Shown: positions 13,286 through 64,000 of the stretch, in pieces
How the letters are laid out: each line of letters begins with the position of its first letter
Position numbering within the stretch: position 1 is the first letter of the stretch
Source: a virus
Virus record (IMG/VR): IMGVR_UViG_3300045993_000757
Location: 1 to 64,000 of that record
Strand: one strand, 5' to 3'
DNA: 64,000 nucleotides
Translations under genes and position numbers: made by a program
Notes under the pieces: model-generated
Databases searched by the model: none
Seen by the model: the letters and a program-made list of their open reading frames with translations, nothing else
What the model was told of the DNA's origin: nothing

Positions 13286-13500
13286 TTGACAGTCCTTGAT
13301 GTCTGATTTCCACTCCGCTCGGTGGTTTTTTTCAGTTGCAGAGCCCGGCCGAGCGGATCGGCCGGGTTTCTTCATTTCTCGGGCGCCAAATCCACAACTT
13401 GGCGCGTTTTCAATCTCCCGACCCGGTCGCGCGCTGTCAAGCTCGTTAAAGATTTCACTTTTTCGTTGCGCGCCCCAGCCCAGTCATCAATGGTTTCCGA

Positions 13501-14168: not shown

Positions 14169-14213
14169 CCTCGCGCTCGTTGCATCGACAACCAGAAAGT
14201 CAGGAAAATCTAA

Positions 14214-46066: not shown

Positions 46067-47901
46067 CCGCCATCGAAGCCATGCGCCTTTCCCTGGCGCA
46101 CAATCTTGGGTCCGCGCGCAACACTCTCGCGCCCGGACTGGAACTTCCCGCTTACACGACGGGCATGGATCCCAACGTGTGGTCGTCGCGCATCCAGGCG
46201 ATGAGTTTGTCCCGGCTTCAGCCGGCGGGGTTCGCGACGTCCCAGTACAAGTTCCAGAATACTCCGGGATCATTCGACTTCGGGGCCCCCACAGTTTCCA
46301 ACGCGCTCATGGTTCCCAAGACGGACCTCGAGAAACAGCAAGCTATCCAGTCGCTCATGTCTGTCATGGCTCCCGCTCCGAGATCCCCATCTGCCGGCGG
46401 AAGCTCCGCGGATTTTGGAAGTGGGACCTGGCTGTTCGGGAATGACTTCGGCGGACTTCAGTCGGCCTTCCTCGCCAGCGCAGCCCAGGACGAGGCGGCG
46501 CGAGCGGCCCGTGTTCGCGAGGCCCAGAACCAGGCTCAACTGAATCTCACGGCCCAAGCCCAGGCCCAGGATCGAGCGATGAGGCAGCAGGCGGCGCAGC
46601 AAGCCCTCAAGCAGTCTGACTTCCAGAACATGATGTCTCTGGCCGGGCTCTCCGAAACGTCTGGCCAGCACACGTTTGAGGATCAGCTCAACCTGATGAA
46701 GCTGACCGGAGCCAACATGGACGCCGAGCAGATGTCGAAGCTGGGCACGGACTCCATCATGGCCCAGTTCGACGCTGCCACGAAGCAGCAGAACGCCACG
46801 AGCGGGTTCAACGATCATGTCCAATCGATGGTCAACGCCTACAACGACGCCACCACCGGGGAGAAGATCGGTTTGACCATGCACAACGGGGTGTTGGTTC
46901 CATCGGTCTCCAAGGGAGACGCGGGCGGTACGAAGCTGATCAGCGACCTGTATTCCAGCCCAGCCTACGCGGCGATCACCGACGCCCAGAACGCGGTGAC
47001 CAAGGCCCAGGCGGACTATGCCAAGCTCGCGTTCGTGAAGAAGGCCAGCACGGGGCTCATGCCATCCTCGATGCCCGCCAGTGGCTTACCGGTGAACCCG
47101 ATCCTCCAGAACGCCCTCCAGCGGTACGGGGTGAATCTGGGTGGCGTGGCTCCGCGCACGGCAACGGCTGTGGCTTCCTCGGCCAGGAGTGGGGCCACCC
47201 CTTTCATCCTGCAAGATCAAGCGGCGGCTCGTGGGGCGGCGCAGGCGGCATGGAATGCCCAAGGTGTGCCCCCCGCGGCGTGGCAGGATGGCATTGGAGA
47301 GCTTCCATTTGGGGCAAATGTGGCAGCACCCGCAGCTACCCCGAGAACTTATGTTCAATACGTCCCCGGATCCGGAGATCAGATTGCTCCTTCATCCTAT
47401 GCCACAGGGGTGACTGGTGCAGGCGGTGGGGGGGACATACGCCTTCCCAATTCCGGCGGATCAACTCCCGGTTCGATTCAGCTTTCGGACGGGACCGTGG
47501 TCACCGCCACGCCATCTATTCCTTATTCTCCATATAGCCCGGGTTATTCCCCAGGAGTGTCTGGTGCTGGCGGAGGTGGGAACATTCAACTTCCAGTATC
47601 GTCATTGAATGGGACTTCTGCGGCTTCCATAGAGTGGACGCTTCGACAGGCTTTGGGAGAGTTCCCGGGAACATCGTCTCAACTCGCGCCTATCTCTCCC
47701 GAACAGCGCGCCGCCGCCATCGCCGCCTACCTTCAGGCGGGCGGTGTCCCATGGTGGCCGGGTGGGATGCAGGGGGCCCCGTACCCCGGCCTTTCAAACT
47801 CCGCGATTCTTCCATCCATCGTTCGTCCCGCCGCGCCGATTTCAGGCAATCCGTTCCGATACATTCTTCCGCCCCCTTTGCCGACGTCATTCCGAGGCTG
47901 A
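46063..47901 (+). CDS. putative internal virion/ejection protein
   Basis: Q/A-rich coils; Pro/Gly-rich tail with duplicated GVxGAGGGGxIxLP. Confidence 0.6.
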   Translation: MTAIEAMRLSLAHNLGSARNTLAPGLELPAYTTGMDPNVWSSRIQAMSLSRLQPAGFATSQYKFQNTPGSFDFGAPTVSNALMVPKTDLEKQQAIQSLMSVMAPAPRSPSAGGSSADFGSGTWLFGNDFGGLQSAFLASAAQDEAARAARVREAQNQAQLNLTAQAQAQDRAMRQQAAQQALKQSDFQNMMSLAGLSETSGQHTFEDQLNLMKLTGANMDAEQMSKLGTDSIMAQFDAATKQQNATSGFNDHVQSMVNAYNDATTGEKIGLTMHNGVLVPSVSKGDAGGTKLISDLYSSPAYAAITDAQNAVTKAQADYAKLAFVKKASTGLMPSSMPASGLPVNPILQNALQRYGVNLGGVAPRTATAVASSARSGATPFILQDQAAARGAAQAAWNAQGVPPAAWQDGIGELPFGANVAAPAATPRTYVQYVPGSGDQIAPSSYATGVTGAGGGGDIRLPNSGGSTPGSIQLSDGTVVTATPSIPYSPYSPGYSPGVSGAGGGGNIQLPVSSLNGTSAASIEWTLRQALGEFPGTSSQLAPISPEQRAAAIAAYLQAGGVPWWPGGMQGAPYPGLSNSAILPSIVRPAAPISGNPFRYILPPPLPTSFRG

Positions 47902-47904: not shown

Positions 47905-50900
47905 ATGCCCAAATATCCGCTGACCTTGCCGAACGGACAGTCGTTCGACATCGACTCGCCGAACGAGCTGTCCCAGTCCCAGCTCGCCGAAGCCCAGGGC
48001 CAGCTCATGGCCCAGTTTGGACAGGCCCAGCCCGACCCGACTCCGGTCGCCGAACCGTCGTTGTCCAATAACGCCTTCGATCCGATCGGTGCGGTGCGCG
48101 ATGCCATTGGACAGGAACTGCCTCCGCCAGAGTTCGGCGCCATGGATGTCCCTGGGGCGGCAGTTCGATCCACCATGGGTCAACTCGGTCAGGGGATGTT
48201 CAAGATCGGGCTTGGAGCCATGGGTCTGACTACGGGCCCATTGGTTGATGTGCTGACGGGAAACACACCCTTCCAGCAGAACCCAAGCTGGGAAACCCTG
48301 GGAGAAACGCTCAATCCCGCGAAGTCCTACGCCCGGTTTAAGCGCGGCGCCATGGCGCAGAATATAAATGACCTAGCGCGTTCTTCGGTCCCCGTCTGGG
48401 AAAGGCAGAACGATCCTTCCATCGCCCAGCCCACAGGGTTCACGAAGTCAGCCATCGATTTCACGGGGGGCGTTGCTTCCTCCGTCATCATGTCCCTTCC
48501 CGCCATGGTCACCGGGATCCCCGGGCTCATCGGGATGTCCATGGCCACGTTCGATCCGGCCTTTGAGGAGGCCCAGTCGAAGGGCGCAGGCGACACAAAA
48601 GCTTTCGCGCACGCCGTCCTTTCCACGGCGTTCGAAGCGGGATCCGAATACGTCGGATCGGCCTGGGCCAAGACCGCCCGGATGATGGAAACGATGCCGT
48701 ACCTACCGCCGACCGTGCGGAAGTACCTGTTCCAGGCAGAGCGAGGCCCCGTGGAGGATGCCGCCAAGGAAGCTGCCAGGAGTTTCTGGGGGACACTCGT
48801 TGGCACAGCCAGCAGGAAGGACGGGATCCACCTCGGCACCGCGACGATGGAAGGGCTGGAGGAAGTCTTCAGCACCGTGGCCCAGCGCATGAGCGCGGCC
48901 ATGCTCTACGACCCGACCCAGATCACGAACATCGGCGACCTGATGATGGACGCCGGGATGTCGTTCCTGGGCGGTGCCGCGGCGGGTGTGGCCTTCACCC
49001 CGCTGGAGCGCCGTGTCGCGCGCCAGAAGGTCGGCGAGGCGATGCGGAGCGGTGTCTTCGAGCAGTACCGCACGGCCCTGGAAGCCGCCAAGAAGGACGG
49101 CGCGTACCGACCTGAGGACCAGAAGGTCGTCAACGAGGCGGTCACCGGCCGTCGCCTGATGGAGCTTGGGGCTCTCTGGGGCAACACCGACATGGTGGCC
49201 AAGGGGAAGGAACAGCTCGCCGCCGCCACCACGCCCGAAATGGCAGCCGCCACGGAGGCGGAGGTGAAGAAGGCCGCGGAAATGTTCCACGCCGTCCAGA
49301 CCCCGGAAGGAGCGGCGACGGCTCACAAGCTGGCGGTCGATCAGTTCGGTGCGGACAGTCCCCAGGCGAAGAAGATGGCCGAGCTAGTGAATCAGGCCAA
49401 CGAGCACCGGCTGGACATCGCCCGTGCCCAGGCCGTGCAAACCTCCGGCCCCGGCATGAAGTCGGAGGAGTGGGCCAAAGTCGTCACCCAGGAAGGTCTT
49501 TCGCCTGACCGCGTCGAGCTGCACGCCAGCCAGGGATTCCGCGACAACGAGACGGGTCTTCCCACCGAAAATCCCAAGGATTCCCAGGGCCGTCCCAATC
49601 AGGAGCAGGAAGGCTACGTCGATCCGCAGACCGGCAAGATCCACATTTACCAGGGGTCCATCCTGGGCGACATCAACGCCGGCCGGGGATCCCGCCGCGT
49701 CCGCCAGCGTGAGCACTTCCGCCAGGTGTTGCGGGAGGAGGCCGCGCACACGGCGCTTCAAACGCCCCTGGGCCGGAGCCGCCTCAACGCCTACGTCGAG
49801 CACCTTAAGGCGAACGACTCGAAGGCCTACCAGGCGATCGTGGACACGCTGGCAAGGCAAGGATACCACCCCGACATCATCCCCGAGGAGTACGTCGCCA
49901 AGCTCTACCGGCAGCAGTCCTGGTTCCAGCAGAAGGTCGATGACTTCATGCTGGCCCTGCACCGTTGGACCGGCATCGGGAAGCTGAATCACGTTCGCGC
50001 CGGACGCTTGCTGATCCGCAGTCTCGTGGAGCATTCCCGGCAGGGGAACCTTCGCGGGAACGCCGGCGCTTTCCAGCCTGCCAACGCCGCCGCCGATGTC
50101 CGCCAGCAGGAGTCGCGGCTGGACATGGCCAGGATCCGCGCCCTGAACACGGAGGAGGCCAAGGTCATCGCGTCCGGACACGCCGCGATACTGACCCAGC
50201 CCCAGCTAGAGCAGGCGATCCGCGACCTGACGACGCGCTTGGAACTCATGAACCGCCAGGGGATCGGCGGCATGGTCAAGCTGGAGACGGAGCGCGTCCT
50301 GAAAGCGGCCAAGGACGAGTTTGTGGCCCGCGAGAACGTCCGGCGTCAGGCCATCCTGAACCAAGCGACCGCGCCCGTGCAGCCGCCGACGCCCAACACG
50401 CCCCAGGGCGGCACGGCACCTTTCGTTCCGGTCATCGACCAGCAACCCCCGACACCACCCCCCAATGCCCCTGATCAACAGCAGCAGCAAACAGGCAGTC
50501 AGCCAGAACATCCGAACGGAAATGAAGGCGGGCAAGCCCCAGAAGCAGGCAATAGCAATAGCCCTGGCAGTCCAGCGGAGAGCGGAGCAGAAGCGCCGAA
50601 TCCGGAAGAAAGCAAGGTAGCCAGCTACGTTCCGCCGGAGAACCCCGGCCACATTGCTGCCGACCTTTCGACCAAGGTTCAGCAGGGGGATTTGACGCGC
50701 GACGAAGGAACCGCGCTGTCGATCAAGTTTGGGGTCCAGGGCGAGTTCGATCAGTTCATGGCCCTGATCGACAAGGTCGCCGCCCGCGAGGCTTCTGGAG
50801 AGGCTCAGGCGGAACGCGAGGCGCGCAAGGCCAAGATCGACAACATCGTCTCCCGGCTGCTCGTGGGCGATGAGGTGGACGGTGGCATTCTGGAGTCCAT

Positions 50901-53900
50901 CGAACCCAGGGCGGAAGACGACCACTGGTTCGTGGTCCGTCACCCCGGAGGAACGACATCCGCATCCAACGTCCCGCCGATCATCGGCAAGATGTTCGAC
51001 CCGGCCTGGGTCCAGTCCATTGAGTCCCGGAAGCTCACGCGCGAGAAGGTGCTGAAGGCGGAGGAGCTGAAGAAGAAGATCAAGGGCAAGGAGAAGCCCC
51101 AGGATGCTCGGGAACAGGCGGCGGCAGAGGCTCGTGCCAAGAAGGAGGCGTTCGAGCGCGCCGAGGCTGAACGCAAGGCCAAGGAAAAGGCGGACCAGGA
51201 TGCGGCCCGCAACGAGTTCGAGTCGGCTTTCCAGCAGGCGAAGGCCCTGGCTCCTGGCGACAAGGTTGGAAAACGAGTCGTCCAATCCAACAACACCGAG
51301 ACCACGGACATCCAGTTCGAGGGCGAGAACACCCCCGAGGACTACGAGAACGTCGCCGTCTTCATCATGGACGGAAACGACGTGGTGAAGGCTTCAACGC
51401 CACCGCCGGCCGCAGGCAAGACGTTCAAGGTGGGCGACCGAGTTCAGTGGATGGACGGGAAGATCACAAGGACTGGCGTCGTCCGTGAGCAAACCGCCAT
51501 CGGGGTATCAGTCAACGACGATGACTCGGGCAGGAACTACCTGCTGGCTTCGAGTGACTTGACTGAACTCAGTAAGCCCGTTTCGGACCAACCCCAAGCC
51601 CCCGCGATCATCGAGGCGTGGAAGAAGGGGAAGCGAGAACTGGCCCAGCAACTCGCCGATCGACTGCCCGAACCCGGTGACACATGGGCGTTCCGGACTT
51701 CCGACACCGGAAACCTGGCTGGGTATGGTGCCGGGGATTCCACCTTCACCCGAGACCTGACGGTGCGTGGCAAGCCTCTGTGGCAATGGATCAACGAGGC
51801 CCAGGCAGATACCCTTCCGAAACCCGGATCCAACGCCCAGGAGAACAAGCCGGCCGCAGGGATCACCGCGGACAACCTGCACAAGCAGAACCTCCGGATG
51901 TTCACGGGCATCCTGAAGCCCATCATCGAACGTGTCCGAGGAATCTTCGATCGCCTTGAACGGGGGAAGAAAGTCTCCCAAGATGACCATTCGTTCCTCA
52001 GTCGGTACAGGGCTTTTGCCACCGAGAAAGTTAGGTCTCTGAATGAGGGGTTTGGGGATGTCCCCGCGGAGAGCATCGCTCAGAAGTACACCGATGACTT
52101 CGAGGGCATTGCCTTGGCCCGAGATTACACCAAGGCCCAACTGGAGGTGGAAAAGAGGCACCTCACCAAGTTTGGGCAACTGTTTCCGACGGGATCCGAA
52201 ACAGGGAACATCATCTCAGGACTTCTGGGCCGCGTCATGGAAGCGATCAATCGCCATGATGGTGTCCCGATTCCTCGCCTCGCATCCAAGATTCCCAAAC
52301 GTCCTATCCGCAAGCCCTCGACCCGCGAGCGTGCCCCCGACCTGATCGACCTCCTGATCGACACCGTGGGGAAGATCGACCCCAAGCTGATCAAGGAGGC
52401 CAATCCAGACTTCAAGCCCACGGGCGCGGCCCGCCTGCTGTTCAGCCCCAAGGGAACTCCAGCCGACCAGGCCATGCACGCCGTGGTGGGACAGATGGGC
52501 GTCACGGCCGACATGAGCATCGACCAGTTCGCCGAGGCGATAACGGCGGCTGCCAATGGCAGGAAGGCCACACGCAAGGGCTGGGCGGCGGAAGGGGCCC
52601 AAAACGACGCGGATGCCAAGCGCGCCCTGGCGTTCCATGCGTTCCTGGATAAAGAACGCCCGTCAGGTCTTAGCGTCTCCGAGTTGAAGATGGGCGACAG
52701 CTTCACGGTGGACGGAGATCCTTTCTCCGTCATCGGGGTGGAGTACGGCGAGGATGGAGGGCCTTTCTCGGTTACCCTGGACGGCGGGAAGAAGTGGGGG
52801 ACCCAGGTTGTCGATGGGAAGAAACCAGTCACGGTTGATGACGGAAGCTTCGCGGGCGTGAACGGCCCCATTGAGCCGGAGACCAGCAAGCTCCCGTCCG
52901 AAATCGCGGACGAGATTCGTCGAGTGGTTGGATTCATCCAGGAGGTCAGGAACTACCTCAATTCCCAGCTTCAGTGGAAAGACAATCACAGCCGCTTTGT
53001 CGTGGAGGAATACCTCAAGGACAACGCTCAGGCCATCGAAGCCGCTCAGAAGACCATTCAGGAATTCAGAGACGTTGCTCCGACTCACAACATCGACGCC
53101 GAGCTCGTCATCGAGGAACTCGGCGGAGTTCCTGACATCACGCTTCCCCCTGAAAAACCTGCGGGCATCCCAGGCTTCTTCGACGCCATCGAGTCCGACG
53201 AGGACCGGATCGCCCGCGAGCGCAACGAGGCCGAGCAACGCCGCGCCAAGGCCGACGCCGACAAGCTCCGCGACCTGGCCAACAAGCCGCTCAAGGGAAC
53301 TGCTGGCGACCTGGGGCAGGGGGCCCTGTTTGCGGAACCCGGCGACCAGGACTTGTTCGCCCCGCCGCCGGCCGACGTTCAGCCCAAGCGCAAGGCCATG
53401 GACGCGATCCAGGCCAAGGTGGACGCCCAGGACGCCACCAAGCGCGCCAAGATCGAGGAGCTGAAGAAGCGGCTGAAGCCGAACATGGGCGGAGAAGACA
53501 TCACGCCGTTCTCCCTCAAGGAGCTTTCTCCCCAGACCAAGAACGACCTGATCGAACTGTCGGGGCTCTACCTGAGCAGCGACATCGTCTCCTTCGCCGA
53601 GTTCTCAACCAAGCTCATCGACGACTTCGGGGACAGCGTTCGTCCCTGGCTCCAATTCGCCTATGAAAGCTCTCGGTTCTCTCCTGGTGCGACTTACAAG
53701 GGATCAATGGACCCGGCTGATTGGGTCGAACAACTCGCCAAAAAATATGACTCAGGTGCCACTCCGGATCTGGAATCAGATCGCTTCCGAACAACAGGAC
53801 AACCTGGACCCGATCGCGGTCCAACTGTTCAGCCTGAAAACCTCGGACCAGCTCAACCTGGTGATCGACCTGTGGCACCAGGAGATTCGCAAGCTGACAC

Positions 53901-56900
53901 CGGAACCCCTGGTGGCGTCAGCGATCGTGGCGATTCTACCACTGATGCGCGCCCAGCGGGCGGTGAACGCCTTCCTGAGCCAGCGGCCAGCCCTGTCGTG
54001 GAACGTCCGGCAAGCCATCCCGGAACTCAACGGCCTGGACGAAGCGGTGGAACTGGGCGTGCTCGAGTATCGGCTGCGGCGCAATCAGACCTTGGATCTC
54101 CGGAAGCTCCTGTCGTCGCCCCAGACGTGGCAACTCCTCCGCCCGATTTTGGAGCGTACCCCAGCGACAACCCCGTCGCCGACCAAGCCGACGCCAACGC
54201 CCGATCCTACCCCTGGCTCTCCGCCGATCCCGGCAACATAGAGAGCACGCTTCCGATGCTGTTCCCCAGCCAGCGGAAGAACGTCTTCCTGGCGGAGCGG
54301 CGGTTCGCGGAGACCCCGGTGGCAGCCACGCACGCCTCGGGCACCGGCCTGGGCGATCCCAAGCGCGGGATCCTGTTCACCGATGGCACCGGCACCGGCA
54401 AGACCTACTCCGGGGCAGGCATCGTCAAACGCTTCCTCATGCAGGGGAAGACGCGGATCCTCATCGCGGTCCCGAACGCCAACATCATCGAGGCGTGGAA
54501 GTCGGCGATGAAGGACTTGGAGATCCCGCACTTCGTCCTTCCCGACACCAGCACCGCCGCCAAGGGCGTCACGCTGACCACCCAGGCGAACCTCCGAAAC
54601 AACGCCGAGCTCGCCAAGCAGGACTTCGACCTGGTGGTCATCGACGAGTCTCACAACCTCCTGTCCAACGAGGCGGGTGAGGCGAACGCGGGTCTTCGGT
54701 CCTTCCGGATGGTGGCCAACCACCCCGACAGCGTGGAGCGAAAGGCCACGAATGCCATCATCGGGCCTGCCCCGGTCCAGGCGGACTACGCAGGCGGAGG
54801 TGATTTCGCGGCTGCCCTTCACCAGTGGGACCAAAAGCGCATCGACAACATGGCGAAGATCAGCGCCGAGGTGAAGCGGATCAACGAACTGAACACCAAG
54901 GCGCTCTTTCTTTCAGCTACGCCATTCGCCTACCACACCTCGCTCATCATGGGCGACGGGTTCCTCTACTCCCTGCCCGACGACAGTCAGCGAACCGGAT
55001 ACAATCAGCCCAAGGGATTCGACCGGTTCCTCGCCGAGAACCTGGGATGGCGGATGCGAACTGGGAAGCTGAACAAGCCCAGCGCAAACGTGGACACTTC
55101 GGTCATGGAGATCCAACTCCACGACCTGTTCGCCAAGCGCGGGGCCATGCACGGCGTCTCGCTCGATGTTCCCCAGGACTACAGCCGGGAGTTCGTCCTG
55201 GTCCGACCGGCCGCAGCGCAGAAACTCGATGATGGGTTCTCGTTCTTCCGTGGCGGCGAGTCGTACCAGCAGCAGTACCCGATCCTCAATAAGGTCTTCA
55301 ACGAGCTCTGGGACTACAACCACGTCGCCCAACTCCTCGAAGCATTGAAGATGGACTCTGCCATCGAACGCATCCGCCAGCACGTTGCCATGGGCAGGAA
55401 GGTCATCCTGCTCCACAGCTACCTGAAGGCGAAGATCCATGCCCACCCCTTCCGGTTCGAGACCTACCCGCCGGAATTCCTGATGGCTTTCAACGGGGCG
55501 GATCTCAAGGCTGAGATGGACCGTTTCCGGAACGATCATGCCGAGTGGGCCAACATCGTCATGCCCGACTCTGAGCTTTCGTTGGAGAAGATCCGCCGCG
55601 AGTTCGGAGACTCCGTGGTCTTCAACAACGGCAAGGAGGCCCCCCGAAGTCGTGTCGAGGCGGTGATCGACTTCAACCGCGACGGTGGCGGCGTGAATCT
55701 CCTGGTCGGTCAGCTTCAGGCGACCAAGGAAGGCGTCTCGCTCCACGACAAGAGCGGGAAGCACCAGCGCGTCATGATGATGGTCGCGCTGCCCATCCGA
55801 CCCACCGATGCCATCCAGGCCGAGGGTCGCGGTTACCGGATCGGAGTGAAGACCGACGCCATCAACGAGTACATCGTGCTCCACACGATGATGGAGCGGT
55901 TCGCCTTCGCCTCGAAGATCAACGAGCGCGCGGACACCGTGGAAACCCTGGCCCTGGGATCGGACAGTCGAAACCTTCGCGACCGATTCCGCGACGGCTA
56001 CCTCAATGCCATCGACGCGGATCCCAACGACCAGCAGGGCAAGGGAAGCAAGGAGGCCGACCGCCGCGCCGAGACGATGTCGGACTTCGACCGGGCCGTG
56101 TCCTTCTACTTCGCCCGCACGAAGAAGAACTCCCGGACCAAGAGCGCCGAGGGGCTGGACTACTACCCCACGCCGGAGCCGCTGGGGCTCAAGATGGTGG
56201 AATGGGCTGACCCAAGCGCCGGGGACGCCCTGCTGGAGCCTTCCGCCGGCCACGGGGCCATCGGCCAGTGGTTCCCCAACATCGGCCAGCACGCCTACCT
56301 GGAACCCTCCGCCGAGCTTCGCAGCGAGCTGGGAATCAAGGTGAAGGCGGGGACCGTCTACTCGACGACGTTCGAGGACTACCACATCACGAACAAGTTC
56401 GACGAGATCGTGATGAACCCGCCGTTTGGTCGGGCGGGGGCCACGGCGTTCGCGCACCTCGCCAAAGCTTTCCGACATCTGGTAATGGGCGGGCGTATCG
56501 TCGCCCTGGTTCCCGATGGGGCCAACACGAACGACAAGATCGTCGAACTCCTAAGGGCCGGGAATGATCCCACGGGGCACTATGACGGCCGAGTGTTGCG
56601 GGCGGACATATCGCTTCCTTCGTCCGTGTTTGAACGGGCCGGGACCAGCGTTCGGACTCGCCTGCTGATCTTCGATACGCCGACCTATTCCGATCTCCAC
56701 TCCGGCCACCGGATCGGAGAAGGGCTTGAGAACCTGTTCCCGCCCACGTTCACGACCAAGATCGAGGCCAACACCATCCAGGAGTTGTTCGACCAGATCC
56801 GCGACCTGGACGTTCCGGCGCGAATCCGGAAGCCCAAGCCCGCCCCAAGCAATCCGCTGACCACACGGGACGCCATCATCCAGACGACATCCCAGGGCCC

Positions 56901-59900
56901 CGGCGTCGTTCCCACCCGCCAGCAGTCCACCACACCCCAGCTTCCTCCGTTGTTCAAGCTGGGTCAGACGACGCACGCGAAGAAGGGGATCCAGTTGTTC
57001 GTCGCCACGCTGACCAAGAGCTTGAGCGATGCGAACTTCTCCGTAGTCAACCGGATCGCCAAGAAGCACGACGGATACTACTCGGGGTACAACAAGGCCA
57101 ACGCGATCCCAGGATTCCAGTTCGACGCCGCGGATCAACGAGACGATTTCGTCGCCGAGGTTGAGCGGGCACTCCGACCTCCCGACGAATCCACTCCGAC
57201 CTACTCCCTGAAGGCGCGCGATCCGTTTGAGGTCAACGACATCACGCGCACCCGCGGGGCCATCATGGCTTCCATCGGAGTGCCGCACGTCGCGGATGCC
57301 ATGACGATGACCCCCGACGAGTTCGCCGCCGGGAAACATCCGACTGTCCTGGGGTTCTCTGGCAAGTCTCTATGGCAAGCCATCAACAGCGGGGATCCCA
57401 CCCTTTCGGCGTTGCTCCGTTCGCCCGCCTATTCGCTCAAGGTCCGTCCGGTGCAGTCGGACCTGTTCGACCGGGAGACGACGCGGAGCATCGCCCAAGC
57501 CTACACCTCGGCGGGAACGTCGCTGCCGAACAACCGCCCCGCCCTGTTCTCGGTGATCGACAACGGGGACGGGTGGAAGGCGCAGAGTCGAAACATCGAC
57601 TTCGGGGCCGGGAAGTCCTTGTGGATGGACGACGCCCTCAAGAGCCGGGGCGTGGAGAACCTTCGGTACGATCCATTCAACGAGGCCTCCGCCGTCAATG
57701 AGGCCACCGTCGATTCAGCTCTCCGCGCCCCGGCCGACACCTTGACCGTCGCCAACGTGCTCAACGTGGTCGCGCCGGAGGCTGCGTTGGATGAGACCAT
57801 CCGTCAAACCGCCCGCCTGCTGAAGCCGGACGGCAAGGCGTACTTCTGGGTCCACTTCGAGAACGGCAAGAAGTCCGGCGTTCCCCGCGGTCGCCCCGAC
57901 TCCTGGCAATGGCACCATAAGGCCGAGTGGTACGTCCCACACCTGAGCCGCTTCTACGGAAAGGTCGAGACCATCGGCCAGAACATGATCGTGGCCTCGC
58001 AGCCGATCCCCGTGGTGGGCGAATGGTCGCCGTCCGCGGAAGGGCCCACGTTCAGCCTCAAGCCGCGCGCCTACGACCTCACGCCGAACGGTGGGAATCC
58101 CATGGTGCCGCGCATCGGCTACCTCACCGGGAAGCACAGCGCCAAGATCCTCGCTCGCGCCCAGGCCCGCGGGGACATCGGGGCCCTGATTACGCCGACA
58201 TCGTCGCACTCATTGGACACGGCCCGGTCCTACCCGTTCTACGCCGTGGACAATGGCGTGTTCGGTAAGGCCGGGTTCAACGAGCCCAAGTTCAACGCCC
58301 TCCTGAACAAGATCCAACCGGGCGATCCCAAGGTCTTGTTCGTCGTGGCCCCCGATGTCCTGGCCCACCTTCCCAATGGCCAGGTGGTCGGGGATGCCGC
58401 GGCGACCATCGAGCGGTTCAAGGATTGGGGCCCTCGGATCCGGGAGCGCGGTCTTCCCGTGGCTTTCGTGGCCCAGGACGGGCTGGAGGATCGGTTCAAC
58501 GACATCCCATGGGACGGTATGGACGTGCTGTTCATCGGCGGGTCCACGGGCTGGAAGCTGGGCGAGTTCGCCGATCCGGAGCGCCGGCGGCGGTGGGAGT
58601 ATGTGATGGGCGAGGCGCACAACCGCGGCATCCCGATTCACATGGGGAGGGTGAACTCCAACGAGCGCCTGACGGGCCACGCCGTGGACATGGCTGCGTC
58701 CACCGCGGACGGGACCCTCCTGGCGTTCGGGGAGGACATCAACTTGCCCAGGCTCGAATCATGGCTGGATCAGTTGAACCACGGGGGGCTGTCTTACGCG
58801 GCTCGGAACATGACGGAGTTGGGAAGATTGCCCACGAGGCGGGAGATTATCGACTTGGCCAGTGATCGGAATCTTGCCTATGAAACCCTCGGGGCATTTG
58901 AGCCCGCCCTGGACGAGATCAACGCCACGCGCAACGAACTTGGGCTGCCCCCAATCGCACCCCGCCAGTTCGATCCGGGCCAAGCTGAGTTCGGTTTCTC
59001 GCTGAAAAAGCCAGTCCGGATGTTCCGCAGCTACGCCGAGTTGGAAACGGGGGCTCTCCAGTTCGAGTCCTGGCGCGACTGGTACTCGGCCGACAAGGCG
59101 AACATAGACTCTATGTTCGGTAAGGATGCCCCGCTGTTCGCACAGGTTCTCGCTGCCACGTCCATCCAGACTGAGGTTCCCGATAATGTCGGTCGAGCCT
59201 TGCGCGCCTACATTGAGATGATTCAGGGAGCGCCATTCACTGGTCAGATCCCATCGGCTAGGGTCAATTTGGAGCGAATCCGGGATGGAGAGTCGATCCG
59301 TGGCCCCAAGATAGAACCTTTTGCTCGGGCCATCATGGGCGATGAAAGCGCGATCGCTGTTGACAGGCACGTCATCCGCGCGATCTTCGGCGAGGACGCG
59401 GTCGCTACTCCGGCACTCATAAGAAAGGCACAAGATGTCATTCGCAAGATTGCGGCGAAACACGGGTGGACTCCTCGGCAAACCCAGGCCGCAGTCTGGG
59501 CTTGGAAAATCAATCTCAACGGGAAAACCCCCCAACGATACCTCGACTCCCTCACTCCCGATCGCTTCGCTAGCACAATCCGTGGATCAGGAGTTGAAGG
59601 ACTCGTTCGATCGCGCACGAATTTTGGACAGGGAACTCAAGCAGGCGTTGGGACCGGGGCGGCAGACACCGGATCCGGAGTTCAAACGGGAAATGAAACC
59701 CCCGCTTACAGCCTAAAGACCCCGCCCGATCACCGGCCGCTCGCGGAGGACATCAACGCTTTCCGCACCGAGTTCCCCACGGCCCCGCCGATCGTCGTCA
59801 ACCAGGACGATGCCGCGCGCGGGGCCCGGTTCGAGAATGGCGAGATCGTGGTCGCTGAGACCATGATGCCCAGCAGCCGCACCGGTCGCCGGGCGGAACT

Positions 59901-62900
59901 CCTGGCGGCTCTCTCAGACGCCGGTCGGCTGAACATTCCCCAGGGATTCTGGGATCGAAGCTGGAAGGGTCTTGTCGCGGCTTCCCCCGTCCTCATCGAG
60001 GAGACACGCAAGTCCATTGGCGGGAACATCGACACCCAAGAAGGCCGCAATGCCATCCTGGCTGAGTTGGTGAAGCGGACATCAAAGTCCTCCGCCCCCG
60101 TGGGATTCGTGCGTTCGGCCCTGGCGTTCTTCCGTGGCCTCGACCAGACGAAGACCCCGGCCTACATCATCGCGGCCATGCAGCGGACGCTGGACCGGGT
60201 GACCGACCAGTTCACGCCACACCAGGCGGGGCCGCAGGGCGAGGCGGACTTCGGACCCACCGACACGCTCCACCAGTACATCGGCGGTCTCAACCGCGAC
60301 GGATCACAGCGGGCGAGTGGCGTTCAGGAACAGGTCTTCGCCGACCAACACTTCGCCCTTTGGAACTCCTTCGAGCCTGAGCTTTCCCGCATGGAGGCGC
60401 GGCTCTCCGATCTTCAGACGGGGCTCCTGGAGGACCACCAGTTCGAGAGTGTCCGCCAGCGGATGCAGCAGATCGCCGACACGGTCCTGGCAACGAACAT
60501 TGCGAACCACCGGCGCGCGGCCCTGAACATCGCCGCCGATGACTTCATCGACCAAGTCCAGGAGGTGAATCCTGACCTCCTCACCCGCGAGGACATCGAG
60601 AACCACAGCATCTATCTCAACGAGGTGAAGGCCCGGCGAGCCATGTCGCTCATGCAGAACATCGAGCGGAACAAGGCGACTCGCGATTACCTGACGGACA
60701 ACCTGCCCCAGTACCCGATTCAAACCCTGAACCGCCGCATCTCCCGGCAGCAGATCCGCCTGTCTGACATCGAGCAGAACCACCCCGAAATGTACGCTCG
60801 TGCCTCCGAGTTGAAGTCGCGGGTGGAAGGCGATCCCGCGGCCCGCGCCGCCGCCGATGCCATTTCCGACCCGGCCATCCAGGAGTGGGTCGAGGTCATC
60901 CATCAGATCCGCGAGAGCGGGACCCAGCCGCGCGCCCTGGCAGCCATGCCGGTGGCCATCCAGAATTCCGCCGCCGTCGCCGCCGGGGTGTTCCAGTACA
61001 AGGCCAGGGCCATGCGGCGGGAGCTGGGGGATCGCCTGGTTCGAACGACCGACACCGCCCTTCGCGCCCTCAACAAGCTCGTCGAGGAACGGCGCAATTC
61101 CCGGCAGAAGGAAGGTCAGATCGAAGTCGCCATGGTGGAGATGATCCAGGCGGCACGCGGGGACGCCGGGGCCAGCGGTGGCCTCTACACCCTGGAGGAA
61201 GCCAAGCGGATGCGGGACATCGGGGACCGCGCCATCGCCCGGTTTGCTCGATTCCTGGGGGCTTCAGATCCCGGAACGCTGCCGGCTGAGCTTCGGGATG
61301 CCTTCATCGAGGACAACCTGATGTCCATCGGGATCGACCCGGCGACCCTGAGCGGGCCCAACTCGTTCGATCTCGACCGGATCGCCACCGATGCCGGGAT
61401 CTCGCGGGAAGCCTTCCTTCAGATCATGGAACTGGCGCGCACCTCGCGCCCCTTCCAGAACATGGTGGTCGCCCTGGCCGACGAGGCCGACGAGCGCGCT
61501 GAGACCAGCATCCTCAACGCCATCCAGCGGCTCCAACGGGTCCGCAACGAAGTCCTGAGCCGCCCCAGGGATCCGGTGGACACCACCGGCCTGACCCCCA
61601 AGGAGGCGCGCATCGCCATCGCCCGATCCGAACGTGCCATCATCCGGCAGGCGAACCAGGAGGCGCTGCTCTCCGCGGCCCCGTTCCTGCGCTCCCTGAA
61701 GCAGCAGACCCTCGAACTCAAGCAGTCGAACCGGTCGATGGACACGCAGATCGAGCGGTTGGAACGCGAGCTTCAGACGATCCAGAACCTCTCCGACATG
61801 GCCAACGCCGTGGACGGAGCGGCCCACGAGCTGGCCCCCGACAACTTCGGGGTGGCCGAGATGGTCTACCAGACTTCGGACGGCGTCTTCATGGCGGAGT
61901 TCCTGACGGCGGAAGGAACCCAGCCCGGCGTCCGGGTCAGCCCTGGCGAGGAGTATTCGGCCGAGAAGATCATGGAGATCATCCTCTATCGGGACGCGGC
62001 CCTGCGCGCCATCGCTGCCAACGTGAACCCGCCGGAGATCACGCGCGGCTTGGAAGTCGCCGTGGACATGGTCCTCCCGCTGATCGACGCCAACTCGACC
62101 CCCGGATCCATCGGAAAGACCCTGTCCCCGAACGGCCTGTCCGAACAGTGGACGAAGTATCCCATGGGCGTTCGAGCCGCGATGCCCCGCTTGATCCCCG
62201 GCATTTCCGGCCGGCGACTGGCGGAATCCATGGCCACCTACGCCCGTGTCGGAAGCAAGGTCACCGCCATCCTCAACAAGTACCACGCCCGCCGCGTCCA
62301 GTTGCTCAAGGCGGCGATGGACTCGATGAACCTGTCGCCCACGGACGAACTGGCGCGGTCCTCGTTCCGGCAGGTTTACAGCGAGGTGGCCCATCGCCTG
62401 CGCGAACACGGATCCAACGTGGCTCCTGGCGATCAGACGTTCTCCGGAAATCACGGATCCATCGTGACCCCGGAGCTGATCACCCTCCTCCGGTACGACC
62501 GTGAAATCTTCAGGGCCGTCCAGGACATCGTGGAAAGCCTGCCCTACGGCGGCATCCGCGAGTCCATCCCCGGCATGGATGTCCGCCTCATTCGCCCCTC
62601 GGCCGAGACCGGCGACGTGGGCCTGGCCCGGTCAGTGAACAAGGACTTCGAAGTCCCCCTGGCTCGCGCCTATTCCGCCGCAGTCACCCTGGCGACGAAC
62701 CAGCAGAAGGTCACCGGACAGAACGTGATCCCCGACATCACCGCGTTCTGGGACATGAATCCGCACCACATCCTGTTCCACATCCTGGACGCTGGGCGGA
62801 ACGACCTGGCCTTCGCTCGCAATCCGCAGCTTGTGGCCTTGGAGAAGCGATACGCGGCCGACATCCGCGCCGGCCGGGCCCAGGCCCCCAGGACGGTGCA

Positions 62901-64000
62901 GCAGGTCGTGAATGCCCTGACCGCCCTGGCCGGGGGAAGAATCCCGCCCGCGACCGTGGCCAAGCTGTTCAACGAGGAGCTGAACCGTTACGGCAAGGTC
63001 GCCCTGACCCGGAACTCCCTGGAATCCGAGGCCCCCAAGCGTTCCGAGGGGGTTCACATCGGCGAGGATGACACGAACGAGTTCTCGTCCCCCGCGGCGA
63101 AGCTCATCTACCCCTCCGACTTCTACGAGTACGGGGCCAACGGGATCGACATCCGGCAAGCCGTGGAGCGCATGGCGGACCGGGCCCAGGTGGCCATGCT
63201 CGCGGCCATGGAGGATGCCGCCAAGACCCTGAACTCCATCGTCAGCCGCCTCCAAGGTCCGATCCAAGGCATCACGTCCGAGGATCATGACATCGTCCGT
63301 TGGTCCACGCCCAACATGGACAAGTCCACCCTGTTCAAGCGGGTCGCCGCGGCCATCGAGGTGCTCAACGACCGGGCGCGGATGCTGCGCGCCGAGAAGG
63401 CCAAGCTGATCGACACCGGGGTATCCCCTGGAACGCTCGTTCAGCTCATGCGGGCCAACTTCCCCATGATCCTGAGCTGGCCGCGCGCCATGCTGACGAA
63501 CGTGGTGGGTGGGCCCATCGCCTCCGTCTACACCATGGCCGCGGTCTACGGCCGGCCGGCCGCGGTGCTGTTCGCCGCCCTGAATTCCATCGGAAGCATG
63601 GCCACGCTGGCATCCGAGTCGTTCCTGTGGACGGCGAAGAAGCTGGGATTCGATGTCACGGGGGGATCGAGCCCCAACTCCTTCCTTTCGAACCGCGCCG
63701 AGGCTCTGGACTGGCTGGAGTCGGTCGGCCTGGGCGTCACCTCGTACTCCCATGCCGAGATCCAGGAGTTGCAGTCCTATATGCAGGGGCCGGGCCTGAA
63801 GAAGGCGTTCTTCCGCGGGGCCCTGAAGGTCGGGGCCGCAGTCGAGAATGTCCTGGGGCAACACGTTGGCGTCTCCGCCGGCGACCGTATCCTGAACCGG
63901 TTCGCCGCCCAGATCGTCGTTCCCATGACCCTTTGGCGGCTGAAGAAGTTGGCCCTGCGCTGGCAGCAGCGACTTGCCAAGATGGATGTGGTGGCCGGGC
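47905..64000 (+). CDS. giant DarB-like polyvalent ejection protein, >5,360 aa, runs off the right edge
   Basis: Frame 1 translated by hand without stops from ATG 47905 (MPKYPLTLPNG) to about 60.2 kb; the track lists no closed frame-1 ORF anywhere downstream. Motifs: DGTGTGKT/DESH/SAT/QAEGR helicase, LEPSAG/NPPF MTase, DFGAG/NVLNV MTase, DNG/APDV/HMGRVNS/ADGT, LAATS/GPKI/VDRH. Confidence 0.9.
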   Translation, partial: MPKYPLTLPNGQSFDIDSPNELSQSQLAEAQGQLMAQFGQAQPDPTPVAEPSLSNNAFDPIGAVRDAIGQELPPPEFGAMDVPGAAVRSTMGQLGQGMFKIGLGAMGLTTGPLVDVLTGNTPFQQNPSWETLGETLNPAKSYARFKRGAMAQNINDLARSSVPVWERQNDPSIAQPTGFTKSAIDFTGGVASSVIMSLPAMVTGIPGLIGMSMATFDPAFEEAQSKGAGDTKAFAHAVLSTAFEAGSEYVGSAWAKTARMMETMPYLPPTVRKYLFQAERGPVEDAAKEAARSFWGTLVGTASRKDGIHLGTATMEGLEEVFSTVAQRMSAAMLYDPTQITNIGDLMMDAGMSFLGGAAAGVAFTPLERRVARQKVGEAMRSGVFEQYRTALEAAKKDGAYRPEDQKVVNEAVTGRRLMELGALWGNTDMVAKGKEQLAAATTPEMAAATEAEVKKAAEMFHAVQTPEGAATAHKLAVDQFGADSPQAKKMAELVNQANEHRLDIARAQAVQTSGPGMKSEEWAKVVTQEGLSPDRVELHASQGFRDNETGLPTENPKDSQGRPNQEQEGYVDPQTGKIHIYQGSILGDINAGRGSRRVRQREHFRQVLREEAAHTALQTPLGRSRLNAYVEHLKANDSKAYQAIVDTLARQGYHPDIIPEEYVAKLYRQQSWFQQKVDDFMLALHRWTGIGKLNHVRAGRLLIRSLVEHSRQGNLRGNAGAFQPANAAADVRQQESRLDMARIRALNTEEAKVIASGHAAILTQPQLEQAIRDLTTRLELMNRQGIGGMVKLETERVLKAAKDEFVARENVRRQAILNQATAPVQPPTPNTPQGGTAPFVPVIDQQPPTPPPNAPDQQQQQTGSQPEHPNGNEGGQAPEAGNSNSPGSPAESGAEAPNPEESKVASYVPPENPGHIAADLSTKVQQGDLTRDEGTALSIKFGVQGEFDQFMALIDKVAAREASGEAQAEREARKAKIDNIVSRLLVGDEVDGGILESIEPRAEDDHWFVVRHPGGTTSASNVPPIIGKMFDPAWVQSIESRKLTREKVLKAEELKKKIKGKEKPQDAREQAAAEARAKKEAFERAEAERKAKEKADQDAARNEFESAFQQAKALAPGDKVGKRVVQSNNTETTDIQFEGENTPEDYENVAVFIMDGNDVVKASTPPPAAGKTFKVGDRVQWMDGKITRTGVVREQTAIGVSVNDDDSGRNYLLASSDLTELSKPVSDQPQAPAIIEAWKKGKRELAQQLADRLPEPGDTWAFRTSDTGNLAGYGAGDSTFTRDLTVRGKPLWQWINEAQADTLPKPGSNAQENKPAAGITADNLHKQNLRMFTGILKPIIERVRGIFDRLERGKKVSQDDHSFLSRYRAFATEKVRSLNEGFGDVPAESIAQKYTDDFEGIALARDYTKAQLEVEKRHLTKFGQLFPTGSETGNIISGLLGRVMEAINRHDGVPIPRLASKIPKRPIRKPSTRERAPDLIDLLIDTVGKIDPKLIKEANPDFKPTGAARLLFSPKGTPADQAMHAVVGQMGVTADMSIDQFAEAITAAANGRKATRKGWAAEGAQNDADAKRALAFHAFLDKERPSGLSVSELKMGDSFTVDGDPFSVIGVEYGEDGGPFSVTLDGGKKWGTQVVDGKKPVTVDDGSFAGVNGPIEPETSKLPSEIADEIRRVVGFIQEVRNYLNSQLQWKDNHSRFVVEEYLKDNAQAIEAAQKTIQEFRDVAPTHNIDAELVIEELGGVPDITLPPEKPAGIPGFFDAIESDEDRIARERNEAEQRRAKADADKLRDLANKPLKGTAGDLGQGALFAEPGDQDLFAPPPADVQPKRKAMDAIQAKVDAQDATKRAKIEELKKRLKPNMGGEDITPFSLKELSPQTKNDLIELSGLYLSSDIVSFAEFSTKLIDDFGDSVRPWLQFAYESSRFSPGATYKGSMDPADWVEQLAKKYDSGATPDLESDRFRTTGQPGPDRGPTVQPENLGPAQPGDRPVAPGDSQADTGTPGGVSDRGDSTTDARPAGGERLPEPAASPVVERPASHPGTQRPGRSGGTGRARVSAAAQSDLGSPEAPVVAPDVATPPPDFGAYPSDNPVADQADANARSYPWLSADPGNIESTLPMLFPSQRKNVFLAERRFAETPVAATHASGTGLGDPKRGILFTDGTGTGKTYSGAGIVKRFLMQGKTRILIAVPNANIIEAWKSAMKDLEIPHFVLPDTSTAAKGVTLTTQANLRNNAELAKQDFDLVVIDESHNLLSNEAGEANAGLRSFRMVANHPDSVERKATNAIIGPAPVQADYAGGGDFAAALHQWDQKRIDNMAKISAEVKRINELNTKALFLSATPFAYHTSLIMGDGFLYSLPDDSQRTGYNQPKGFDRFLAENLGWRMRTGKLNKPSANVDTSVMEIQLHDLFAKRGAMHGVSLDVPQDYSREFVLVRPAAAQKLDDGFSFFRGGESYQQQYPILNKVFNELWDYNHVAQLLEALKMDSAIERIRQHVAMGRKVILLHSYLKAKIHAHPFRFETYPPEFLMAFNGADLKAEMDRFRNDHAEWANIVMPDSELSLEKIRREFGDSVVFNNGKEAPRSRVEAVIDFNRDGGGVNLLVGQLQATKEGVSLHDKSGKHQRVMMMVALPIRPTDAIQAEGRGYRIGVKTDAINEYIVLHTMMERFAFASKINERADTVETLALGSDSRNLRDRFRDGYLNAIDADPNDQQGKGSKEADRRAETMSDFDRAVSFYFARTKKNSRTKSAEGLDYYPTPEPLGLKMVEWADPSAGDALLEPSAGHGAIGQWFPNIGQHAYLEPSAELRSELGIKVKAGTVYSTTFEDYHITNKFDEIVMNPPFGRAGATAFAHLAKAFRHLVMGGRIVALVPDGANTNDKIVELLRAGNDPTGHYDGRVLRADISLPSSVFERAGTSVRTRLLIFDTPTYSDLHSGHRIGEGLENLFPPTFTTKIEANTIQELFDQIRDLDVPARIRKPKPAPSNPLTTRDAIIQTTSQGPGVVPTRQQSTTPQLPPLFKLGQTTHAKKGIQLFVATLTKSLSDANFSVVNRIAKKHDGYYSGYNKANAIPGFQFDAADQRDDFVAEVERALRPPDESTPTYSLKARDPFEVNDITRTRGAIMASIGVPHVADAMTMTPDEFAAGKHPTVLGFSGKSLWQAINSGDPTLSALLRSPAYSLKVRPVQSDLFDRETTRSIAQAYTSAGTSLPNNRPALFSVIDNGDGWKAQSRNIDFGAGKSLWMDDALKSRGVENLRYDPFNEASAVNEATVDSALRAPADTLTVANVLNVVAPEAALDETIRQTARLLKPDGKAYFWVHFENGKKSGVPRGRPDSWQWHHKAEWYVPHLSRFYGKVETIGQNMIVASQPIPVVGEWSPSAEGPTFSLKPRAYDLTPNGGNPMVPRIGYLTGKHSAKILARAQARGDIGALITPTSSHSLDTARSYPFYAVDNGVFGKAGFNEPKFNALLNKIQPGDPKVLFVVAPDVLAHLPNGQVVGDAAATIERFKDWGPRIRERGLPVAFVAQDGLEDRFNDIPWDGMDVLFIGGSTGWKLGEFADPERRRRWEYVMGEAHNRGIPIHMGRVNSNERLTGHAVDMAASTADGTLLAFGEDINLPRLESWLDQLNHGGLSYAARNMTELGRLPTRREIIDLASDRNLAYETLGAFEPALDEINATRNELGLPPIAPRQFDPGQAEFGFSLKKPVRMFRSYAELETGALQFESWRDWYSADKANIDSMFGKDAPLFAQVLAATSIQTEVPDNVGRALRAYIEMIQGAPFTGQIPSARVNLERIRDGESIRGPKIEPFARAIMGDESAIAVDRHVIRAIFGEDAVATPALIRKAQDVIRKIAAKHGWTPRQTQAAVWAWKINLNGKTPQRYLDSLTPDRFASTIRGSGVEGLVRSRTNFGQGTQAGVGTGAADTGSGVQTGNETPAYSLKTPPDHRPLAEDINAFRTEFPTAPPIVVNQDDAARGARFENGEIVVAETMMPSSRTGRRAELLAALSDAGRLNIPQGFWDRSWKGLVAASPVLIEETRKSIGGNIDTQEGRNAILAELVKRTSKSSAPVGFVRSALAFFRGLDQTKTPAYIIAAMQRTLDRVTDQFTPHQAGPQGEADFGPTDTLHQYIGGLNRDGSQRASGVQEQVFADQHFALWNSFEPELSRMEARLSDLQTGLLEDHQFESVRQRMQQIADTVLATNIANHRRAALNIAADDFIDQVQEVNPDLLTREDIENHSIYLNEVKARRAMSLMQNIERNKATRDYLTDNLPQYPIQTLNRRISRQQIRLSDIEQNHPEMYARASELKSRVEGDPAARAAADAISDPAIQEWVEVIHQIRESGTQPRALAAMPVAIQNSAAVAAGVFQYKARAMRRELGDRLVRTTDTALRALNKLVEERRNSRQKEGQIEVAMVEMIQAARGDAGASGGLYTLEEAKRMRDIGDRAIARFARFLGASDPGTLPAELRDAFIEDNLMSIGIDPATLSGPNSFDLDRIATDAGISREAFLQIMELARTSRPFQNMVVALADEADERAETSILNAIQRLQRVRNEVLSRPRDPVDTTGLTPKEARIAIARSERAIIRQANQEALLSAAPFLRSLKQQTLELKQSNRSMDTQIERLERELQTIQNLSDMANAVDGAAHELAPDNFGVAEMVYQTSDGVFMAEFLTAEGTQPGVRVSPGEEYSAEKIMEIILYRDAALRAIAANVNPPEITRGLEVAVDMVLPLIDANSTPGSIGKTLSPNGLSEQWTKYPMGVRAAMPRLIPGISGRRLAESMATYARVGSKVTAILNKYHARRVQLLKAAMDSMNLSPTDELARSSFRQVYSEVAHRLREHGSNVAPGDQTFSGNHGSIVTPELITLLRYDREIFRAVQDIVESLPYGGIRESIPGMDVRLIRPSAETGDVGLARSVNKDFEVPLARAYSAAVTLATNQQKVTGQNVIPDITAFWDMNPHHILFHILDAGRNDLAFARNPQLVALEKRYAADIRAGRAQAPRTVQQVVNALTALAGGRIPPATVAKLFNEELNRYGKVALTRNSLESEAPKRSEGVHIGEDDTNEFSSPAAKLIYPSDFYEYGANGIDIRQAVERMADRAQVAMLAAMEDAAKTLNSIVSRLQGPIQGITSEDHDIVRWSTPNMDKSTLFKRVAAAIEVLNDRARMLRAEKAKLIDTGVSPGTLVQLMRANFPMILSWPRAMLTNVVGGPIASVYTMAAVYGRPAAVLFAALNSIGSMATLASESFLWTAKKLGFDVTGGSSPNSFLSNRAEALDWLESVGLGVTSYSHAEIQELQSYMQGPGLKKAFFRGALKVGAAVENVLGQHVGVSAGDRILNRFAAQIVVPMTLWRLKKLALRWQQRLAKMDVVAG
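50465..50620 (+). CDS. nested +1-frame gene: 51-aa basic protein MPLINSSSKQAVSQNIRTEMKAGKPQKQAIAIALAVQRR...
   Basis: Matches the common small phage protein pattern MPLKKG.S...S.NI..E..AGKPQKQAVAIAL; G/C-ending codons in this frame. Confidence 0.85.
   Translation: MPLINSSSKQAVSQNIRTEMKAGKPQKQAIAIALAVQRRAEQKRRIRKKAR
53747..54241 (+). CDS. nested +1-frame gene: 164-aa helical protein MTQVPLRIWNQIASEQ...
   Basis: Amphipathic sequence with G/C-ending codons where frame 1 is disordered; A-rich leader; alternative start 53663. Confidence 0.75.
   Translation: MTQVPLRIWNQIASEQQDNLDPIAVQLFSLKTSDQLNLVIDLWHQEIRKLTPEPLVASAIVAILPLMRAQRAVNAFLSQRPALSWNVRQAIPELNGLDEAVELGVLEYRLRRNQTLDLRKLLSSPQTWQLLRPILERTPATTPSPTKPTPTPDPTPGSPPIPAT
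59582..59716 (+). CDS. possible nested +1-frame 44-aa ORF (MDQELKDSFDRARILDRELKQAL...)
   Basis: Helical pattern where frame 1 is G/T/S-rich linker; stop TAA lies within CTA-AAG. Confidence 0.4.
   Translation: MDQELKDSFDRARILDRELKQALGPGRQTPDPEFKREMKPPLTA

Follow-up and report, generated by a model that had tools for sequence, protein, structure and literature searches.

The DNA analysed here, hereafter the window, comprises the first 64 kb (64,000 nucleotides) of IMG/VR virus record IMGVR_UViG_3300045993_000757, a complete phage genome of 75,109 bp with 127-bp terminal repeats. A single open frame from 47905 to 65703 encodes a protein of 5,932 aa, crossing the end of the window and reaching its stop at 65703. 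This giant open reading frame (ORF) is the final gene of a long plus-strand block in which the gaps between genes are small or negative and which also holds the large terminase (20367-21929; phrog_2, Terminase_6N) and tail-fibre-like genes. Because a metagenomic homologue, P0002 (5,906 aa), matches the protein module by module, we regard the giant frame as a real gene. Its middle third carries, in order, a superfamily 2 (SF2) helicase, an N6-adenine methyltransferase (MTase 1), a second class-I methyltransferase (MTase 2), a TIM barrel of the tRNA-guanine transglycosylase (TGT)/DpdA type and a DUF7178 domain. The same five domains had been proposed in an initial annotation made from the letters alone; all five lie where it placed them, and every motif that it quoted was located in the giant frame (Table 1). 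Pfam and PHROG searches returned no family match for the N- and C-terminal thirds. Since it combines five enzyme domains and its gene lies in the block of the large terminase and the tail-fibre-like genes, the product can be classed as a polyvalent protein.

The TGT-like domain (~220 aa; residues numbered from position 58105) matches phrog_15826, a family without assigned function, at E 2.7e-43. Its motifs are VDNG (58246), APDV (58348), AQDG (58471), GGSTGWK (58537), HMGRVNS (58639) and ADGT (58705), and in a 40-member alignment D49-N50, P83-D84, Q124, G146, K151, H179-x-G-R182 and D202-G203 are invariant. AlphaFold predicts a TIM barrel (predicted local distance difference test score, pLDDT, 95.3) with the invariant residues at the C-terminal strand ends; the domain ends ~25 residues past D202. 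In a viral structure library, the named fold matches are mostly phage queuine tRNA-ribosyltransferases. In the PDB, the top Foldseek matches are PdxJ and HpcH aldolases, and among solved structures Cap10 matches best.

Profile comparison places the domain more closely. On hhalign, the phrog_15826-type family aligned with the family of gp87 from Arthrobacter phage Sonali, a DpdA directly adjoining QueC, QueD, QueE and FolE, at 96.9% (E 1.6e-10, 144 columns). Identity is ~16%, and the alignment pairs DNG with DSG, PD with LD and HMG with HGL, so that D49, D84 and H179 fall on the invariant D37, D73 and H155 of the DpdA family. Canonical TGTs were represented by the single Escherichia coli TGT and by a four-species TGT alignment, each set against queries A1 and A2; from these runs, which gave no significant score, motif order alone was used. 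The motifs are still co-linear (DNG/DSGG, AQDG/IIQG, GGS/GGL, HMG/LMG and ADGT/FDCV). On motif order, D49, D84 and D202 are the presumed counterparts of D102, D156 and D280 of Zymomonas mobilis TGT. By these sequence comparisons, the domain appears to keep the acidic residues of the superfamily, that is, the Asp pair, together with the Asp, Gln and GG of the base pocket. We conclude that the domain probably forms a minimal branch of its own within the TGT/DpdA superfamily, one that retains the full catalytic set and has a predicted activity. The TGT/DpdA-like TIM barrel assigned to 58110-58780 in the initial annotation is thus retained: neither an unrelated fold nor a loss of the catalytic aspartates, on which that assignment was to be given up, was found.

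A HMMER scan of 1.8 billion cluster representatives recovered 1,758 related clusters. Most relatives are free-standing proteins of ~210-250 aa, and ~38 of the 150 best representatives are proteins of 600-6,000 aa; the presence of such a domain in a giant protein, described at the outset as unusual, is therefore recurrent in metagenomes. Elsewhere the domain is fused to ART-PolyVal, Ntox46 or DUF7178. The free-standing form of isolate phages is annotated by SEA-PHAGES as a 'DpdA-like tRNA-guanine transglycosylase'. A 'DarB-like antirestriction protein' of Erythrobacter phage ZS04_101 (L030:15914-16555), considered as a fused homologue, proved to be a 213-aa free-standing copy, its name probably inherited from giant homologues. 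A scan of genome contigs with a single protein gave no match. Of 79 loci from bacteria and archaea that encode the domain, 69 hold free-standing copies and 3 have it in giant ORFs; two weak radical-SAM matches lie near family members. A TrwC relaxase-helicase (L049:922-3609) lies near a free-standing TGT-like gene, as in several planctomycete and actinobacterial loci, and the family therefore also moves on conjugative elements.

The neighbourhood of the free-standing members points to their substrate. A PF02592 gene is directly adjacent and co-directional in 14 of the 79 loci, about 11 of them independent on neighbour clustering, in Actinomycetota, Chloroflexota and one Bathyarchaeia metagenome-assembled genome (MAG) of an archaeon. 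PF02592 corresponds to COG1738, the YhhQ/QPTR family, which transports preQ0, preQ1 or queuine (PMC5372724, PMC11130926). In Mycobacterium phage Phegasus, gp53 (L002:6430-6987), directly upstream of the TGT-like gp54, is likewise YhhQ/QPTR (E 1.6e-64); it is annotated as hypothetical, and the host genus has been reported to have no queuosine (Q) and preQ0 genes at all. The chromosomes of Longispora sp. (L035) and Dactylosporangium sp. (L076) carry the YhhQ and TGT-like cassette and no PF01702 TGT anywhere, so the cassette could be a DNA-modification pair of a mobile element or a non-canonical route of tRNA salvage. Four near-identical 39-kb contigs (L037-L040) join a TGT-like gene to a 493-aa YhhQ-containing ORF; because they were binned to MAGs of different phyla (Dehalococcoidia, Gammaproteobacteria and Stappiaceae), they probably represent one mis-binned phage or plasmid. 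Sonali encodes a small TGT-like protein, gp81 (L001:8995-9612), as well as a DpdA/QueC/QueD/QueE/FolE cluster (gp87-91, 11982-15408), and since one phage carries both transglycosylases they are probably not redundant. The recurrent adjacency of YhhQ/QPTR to free-standing members, in ~11 independent genomes and Phegasus, gives strong contextual support to the view that the substrate of the family is a salvaged 7-deazaguanine. Such a transporter-transglycosylase pair agrees with the proposal that precursors in DpdA-only phages are taken from the host or imported (Hutinet et al., PMC6884629).

A link to 7-deazaguanine supply therefore exists at the level of the family, through the transporter and the preQ0 cluster of Sonali, and not in the phage of the giant protein itself. 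Deazaguanine-synthesis genes had been reported as missing from the window, and this holds for the rest of the complete genome, which was also searched: no QueC, QueD, FolE, TGT or YhhQ was found. Having no preQ0 synthesis genes, the phage must either obtain the base from its host or import it, and the YhhQ/QPTR neighbours of free-standing members support such an outside source.

The DUF7178 domain matches PF23802 above the Pfam cut-off (E 1.3e-11), and its predicted structure (pLDDT 92.7) is a two-lobed helical fold with a helix-hairpin-helix. Within the motifs RGPKI (59299) and VDRH (59359), K104 of G-x-K-I and D122 of V/I-D-x-H are invariant in 14 close homologues, lie 18 residues apart and each stand at the start of a helix. 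This spacing presumably equals the geometry of the Lys-Asp pair of EndoIII and Ogg (K120 and D138 in EndoIII). The alignment was built from viral contigs in which the ORFs bearing the domain run from 1,600 to >2,600 aa, and the domain is found almost solely within giant phage proteins. Searches with the single sequence and with the profile gave no match to PF00730 or to PDB sequences, the profile returning chance matches. We therefore describe DUF7178, on its modelled structure, as an HhH-GPD glycosylase-like domain of predicted activity, which upholds the HhH-GPD/DUF7178 call made for 59060-59520, with a predicted glycosylase fold and the Lys/Asp pair kept. The domain goes unmentioned in the literature searched. 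It is present in 4 of the ~38 giant carriers of the TGT-like domain, and P0020, a 651-aa two-domain protein, consists of TGT-like and DUF7178 domains. An obligate partnership of DUF7178 with the TGT-like domain was rejected, since none of 25 viral DUF7178 loci has a TGT-like domain within 4 kb.

MTase 2 shows the motifs IDFGAG (57595), YDPF (57667) and NVLNV (57754). Its PF13489 match (23.9 bits) lies under Pfam's 27-bit cut-off, and in the ESM Atlas the clusters closest to it consist of viral Methyltransf_23 proteins (0.96); despite the sub-threshold Pfam score, the prediction of a second class-I methyltransferase is confirmed. In another giant protein (L019:14-2362), Methyltransf_23 directly precedes DUF7178, an arrangement that hints at a methylase-glycosylase pairing; unlike there, the TGT-like domain of the present protein sits between the two (57500-59502).

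The helicase has motif I GTGTGKT (54385), motif II DESH (54643), SATP (54913) and QAEGRGYR (55816). Its NCBIfam match to DpdE, 26 bits against a cut-off of 500, reflects generic SF2 similarity, and that identity was rejected. MTase 1 has YYPTP (56161), EPSAGHG (56236) and NPPF (56416), and over its full length the helicase and MTase 1 module can be aligned, at 39% identity, to a 'DarB-like antirestriction protein' of Serratia phage Parlo. To P1 DarB itself, BLASTP found short motif matches only (best E 0.012), with the MTase 1 motif set aligning to the DarB N terminus. The methyltransferase of DarB occupies residues 91-184 and its helicase 844-1517, the reverse of the order seen here, so the giant protein shows neither homology along the protein nor the methyltransferase-then-helicase order of the P1 DarB family. 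The earlier label 'P1 DarB-type' is accordingly reduced to an analogy. One protein of the structural block (786 aa, 24636-26996) carries both a calcineurin-like metallophosphoesterase (E 8.5e-11) and an Ig-like, Hoc-like domain.

Table 1. Domains and candidate processing motifs along the giant frame (window coordinates).
Feature	Position	Strand	Basis
Giant polyvalent-protein ORF	47905..64000 in window, to 65703 in genome	+	5,932 aa; homologue P0002
SF2 (ResIII/DExH-type) helicase, predicted	54220..55980	+	PF04851 E 2.3e-10; motifs I, II, III, VI
N6-adenine DNA methyltransferase (MTase 1), predicted	56140..56680	+	phrog_15406 E 3e-31; phrog_6263 E 8e-18
YSLK boundary motif, candidate processing site	57202..57213	+	motif search
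[YF]SLK, immediately before MTase 2	57430..57441	+	motif search
Class-I S-adenosylmethionine (SAM)-dependent MTase 2, Methyltransf_23-like, predicted	57500..58000	+	PF13489 E 3.8e-5; ESM Atlas
FSLK, between MTase 2 and TGT-like domain	58051..58062	+	RFSLKPRA in P0004
Compact TGT/DpdA-superfamily TIM barrel, no zinc subdomain	58114..58785	+	phrog_15826
[YF]SLK, between TGT-like domain and DUF7178	58996..59007	+	motif search
DUF7178, HhH-GPD DNA-glycosylase-like fold, predicted	59074..59502	+	PF23802
[YF]SLK, just past DUF7178	59707..59718	+	AYSLKTP in P0002, P0003

The composition of the giant protein bears on where it acts. None of its 5,932 residues is cysteine, compared with 0.92% in the other genes of the phage (P about 1e-24); giant homologues have 0-2 Cys, whereas free-standing TGT-like homologues average 1.65 per 100 aa. 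Cysteine is also missing from both genes immediately upstream (45341-46066 and 46063-47901), and tail-region proteins of 1,862 aa and 1,475 aa have one Cys each. The motif [YF]SLK occurs six times (53509, 57202, 57430, 58051, 58996 and 59707), against 0.09 expected from shuffled sequences. These motifs frame MTase 2, the TGT-like domain and DUF7178 and are conserved in the homologues P0002-P0004, which suggests candidate protease sites with Lys at P1 and processing into separate enzymes. A gene for the protease itself was not identified. Together, the lack of cysteine and the bracketing motifs suggest a processed protein that exits the cytoplasm. We infer packaging and injection from where the gene lies, from the avoidance of cysteine and by analogy with the family: when polyvalent proteins are encoded alongside packaging genes, they are predicted to be packaged in the capsid (Iyer et al., PMC5512222).

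From these observations we propose that the phage probably brings ready-made DNA-rewriting enzymes, as predicted from their sequences, along with its genome. The giant protein would be built into the virion and exit the cytoplasm together with the DNA, a step suggested by the lack of cysteine and by the [YF]SLK sites that flank its enzymes as if for proteolytic release. The TGT-like domain would be a salvage-type DpdA in which the conserved pair D49 and D202 cleaves the N-glycosidic bond of guanine, with the base held by D84, Q124 and the GG backbone, and a 7-deazaguanine, preQ0- or preQ1-like, would be inserted. This base would be supplied by the host, since the phage neither makes nor imports the precursor. 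Together with the two methylases, the TGT-like domain would mark phage DNA against restriction, at entry or just before packaging, and the HhH-GPD domain would flip and cleave a base in DNA. That the target is DNA instead of RNA or protein is again something we infer. As a mechanism this is plausible. DpdA and polyvalent proteins are both known kinds, and we give the whole explanation, from a virion-borne protein and a salvage-type DpdA to anti-restriction marking and a base-cleaving HhH-GPD domain, a probability of roughly 55%.

A number of results weigh against it. In fold searches, unrelated TIM barrels score close to TGTs; the hhalign comparison with canonical TGT fell short of significance (E 0.09), and a profile search of the TGT-like family against PDB sequences gave chance matches only. 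The Cys3-His zinc site of TGTs is absent, with no Cys in the domain or in the whole protein. PF01702 (TGT) and PF20314 (DpdA4)/DUF6610 gave no match at E up to 10, a test insensitive to phage DpdAs because PF01702 and PF20314 also miss Sonali gp87, the DpdA beside QueC/D/E and FolE; Phegasus is without a match too. NCBIfam and Pfam gave noise at most for the segment, for example rSAM_mob_pairA at E 0.24. QueC, QueD, FolE and DpdA2 occur within 6 kb in none of the 79 loci, most of which also have no transporter. Known DpdA-only phages are barely modified or unmodified, with 0.02% of Gs in phage 7-11 and none in Orion (PMC6884629). A host supply of preQ0 is an assumption. Nor did searches of the giant protein reveal a MuF or other packaging domain or any strong hydrophobic segment.

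This last result also bears on an explanation in which the giant protein is not ejected: it would act late, on progeny DNA before packaging, like known DpdAs, or be structural or scaffold-like with inconsequential cargo domains. That neither a MuF, portal-binding or other packaging domain nor a strong hydrophobic segment was detected speaks for it, known 7-deazaguanine insertion is post-replicative (PMC10516641), and late expression alone would permit modification of progeny DNA. We nonetheless consider it unlikely. The full avoidance of cysteine, which giant homologues share and free-standing ones do not, is difficult to account for in an enzyme confined to the cytoplasm, and packaging is the predicted fate of polyvalent proteins linked to packaging genes (PMC5512222).

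Somewhat more doubtful still is the possibility that the TGT-like domain is a genuine enzyme of the TGT family whose target is not phage DNA but host tRNA or a protein-linked or free deazaguanine, for example in interference with Dpd restriction or with deazaguanylation by type IV cyclic-oligonucleotide-based anti-phage signalling systems (CBASS). The closest solved structure, Cap10, is a TGT-family protein remodelled for protein-linked 7-deazaguanine (PMC11996544). The small TGT-like proteins that accompany YhhQ in Longispora and Dactylosporangium, where no canonical TGT is present, could serve tRNA, and effectors aimed at the host, ART-PolyVal and Ntox46 among them, are numerous in polyvalent proteins. 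However, Cap10 is ahead of unrelated barrels by only ~2 Z units, the neighbouring domains in the giant protein are DNA enzymes, and the nearest relative by sequence profile is a DpdA family beside preQ0 genes. TGTs use zinc and C-terminal parts for tRNA, and the TGT-like domain has neither.

P0020 raises the further idea that TGT-like and DUF7178 domains form a self-sufficient base-swap unit acting at entry, the HhH-GPD domain freeing 7-deazaguanine from host queuosine nucleotides or deazaguanine-marked DNA and the barrel inserting it into the incoming phage DNA. We hold this to be speculative and improbable; if true, such a unit would hide the arriving genome from, or disarm, 7-deazaguanine-based immunity (Dpd or type IV CBASS) before phage gene expression. 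Least credible of all is that 58114-58785 encodes a generic TIM-barrel enzyme (an aldolase, phosphodiesterase or glycosidase) merely resembling TGT, as the PdxJ and HpcH aldolases atop the Foldseek ranking and the lack of a Pfam TGT match might suggest, because the 96.9% hhalign score to a DpdA family with invariant Asp motifs aligned, the predominance of queuine tRNA-ribosyltransferases among viral fold matches and the repeated operon-like adjacency to a queuosine-precursor transporter all speak for the superfamily.

If the preferred explanation, a virion-borne, salvage-type DpdA, holds, a DpdA-type enzyme delivered by the virion, in company with methylases and a glycosylase-like domain, would re-mark phage DNA on arrival, using the queuosine precursors of the host. 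To our knowledge, phage 7-deazaguanine systems characterised so far are all made after infection from separate genes. In addition, phrog_15826 can be read as a minimal DpdA of the salvage type that pairs with YhhQ, and DUF7178 as an HhH-GPD enzyme. Both domains are small, convenient for enzymology and possibly of use as DNA-editing tools, and cysteine avoidance may serve as a simple sequence marker of ejected phage proteins.

Among known systems, P1 DarB likewise joins an N6-adenine methyltransferase of like motif type and an SF2 helicase in a single polypeptide encoded among late or virion genes. The giant protein is 2.6 times longer and has three additional enzyme domains; DarB is an antirestriction protein packaged in the virion, whereas the giant protein is a candidate for packaging. 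With polyvalent proteins (PMC5512222) it shares the format of a giant multi-enzyme protein encoded with packaging genes, and in relatives these TGT-like and DUF7178 modules recur in other combinations, alongside ART-PolyVal and toxin domains. It differs in having no MuF, ART or zincin hallmark domain detectable with Pfam. The census of polyvalent proteins makes no mention, in its main text, of a TGT-type or a glycosylase domain (PMC5512222). Nor did the literature searched yield a fusion of a TGT-like domain to a giant protein; in the one paper where DpdA and polyvalent proteins both appear, they are treated separately. DUF7178 may be likened to the HhH-GPD glycosylases Ogg2 Tm1821, EndoIII, Mag1 and MutY, and its fold relatives include the queuine-salvage hydrolase Qng1/DUF2419; unlike these, it has no sequence-level match to PF00730 or the PDB.

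With the phage enzymes DpdA1-DpdA4 (PMC6884629, PMC10516641), the TGT-like domain shares the superfamily fold, the DxG, xD and D-[GS] motifs and its encoding by phages, and with DpdA-only phages the present phage shares the lack of preQ0 synthesis genes. It departs from DpdAs in its size (~220 aa), its lack of a zinc site, its escape from PF01702 and PF20314 and its ~16% identity to the nearest DpdA family; moreover, DpdAs are encoded by a separate early or middle gene, whereas here the domain is one part of a cysteine-free polyprotein of 5,932 aa. The isolate phages that carry the TGT-like family are absent from the 2019 DpdA supplementary tables (PMC6884629). A further parallel is the salvage pairing of YhhQ/QPTR with TGT (Zallot 2017, PMC5372724; PMC11130926), with which the free-standing members share a transporter-transglycosylase arrangement. 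There the partner is bacterial TGT, whereas here it is the minimal TGT-like family, and the pair occurs in phages and, probably, in further mobile elements as well; the phage of the giant protein has no transporter. What is new here is the placement of free-standing TGT-like genes directly beside YhhQ/QPTR, in ~11 independent genomes and in Phegasus.

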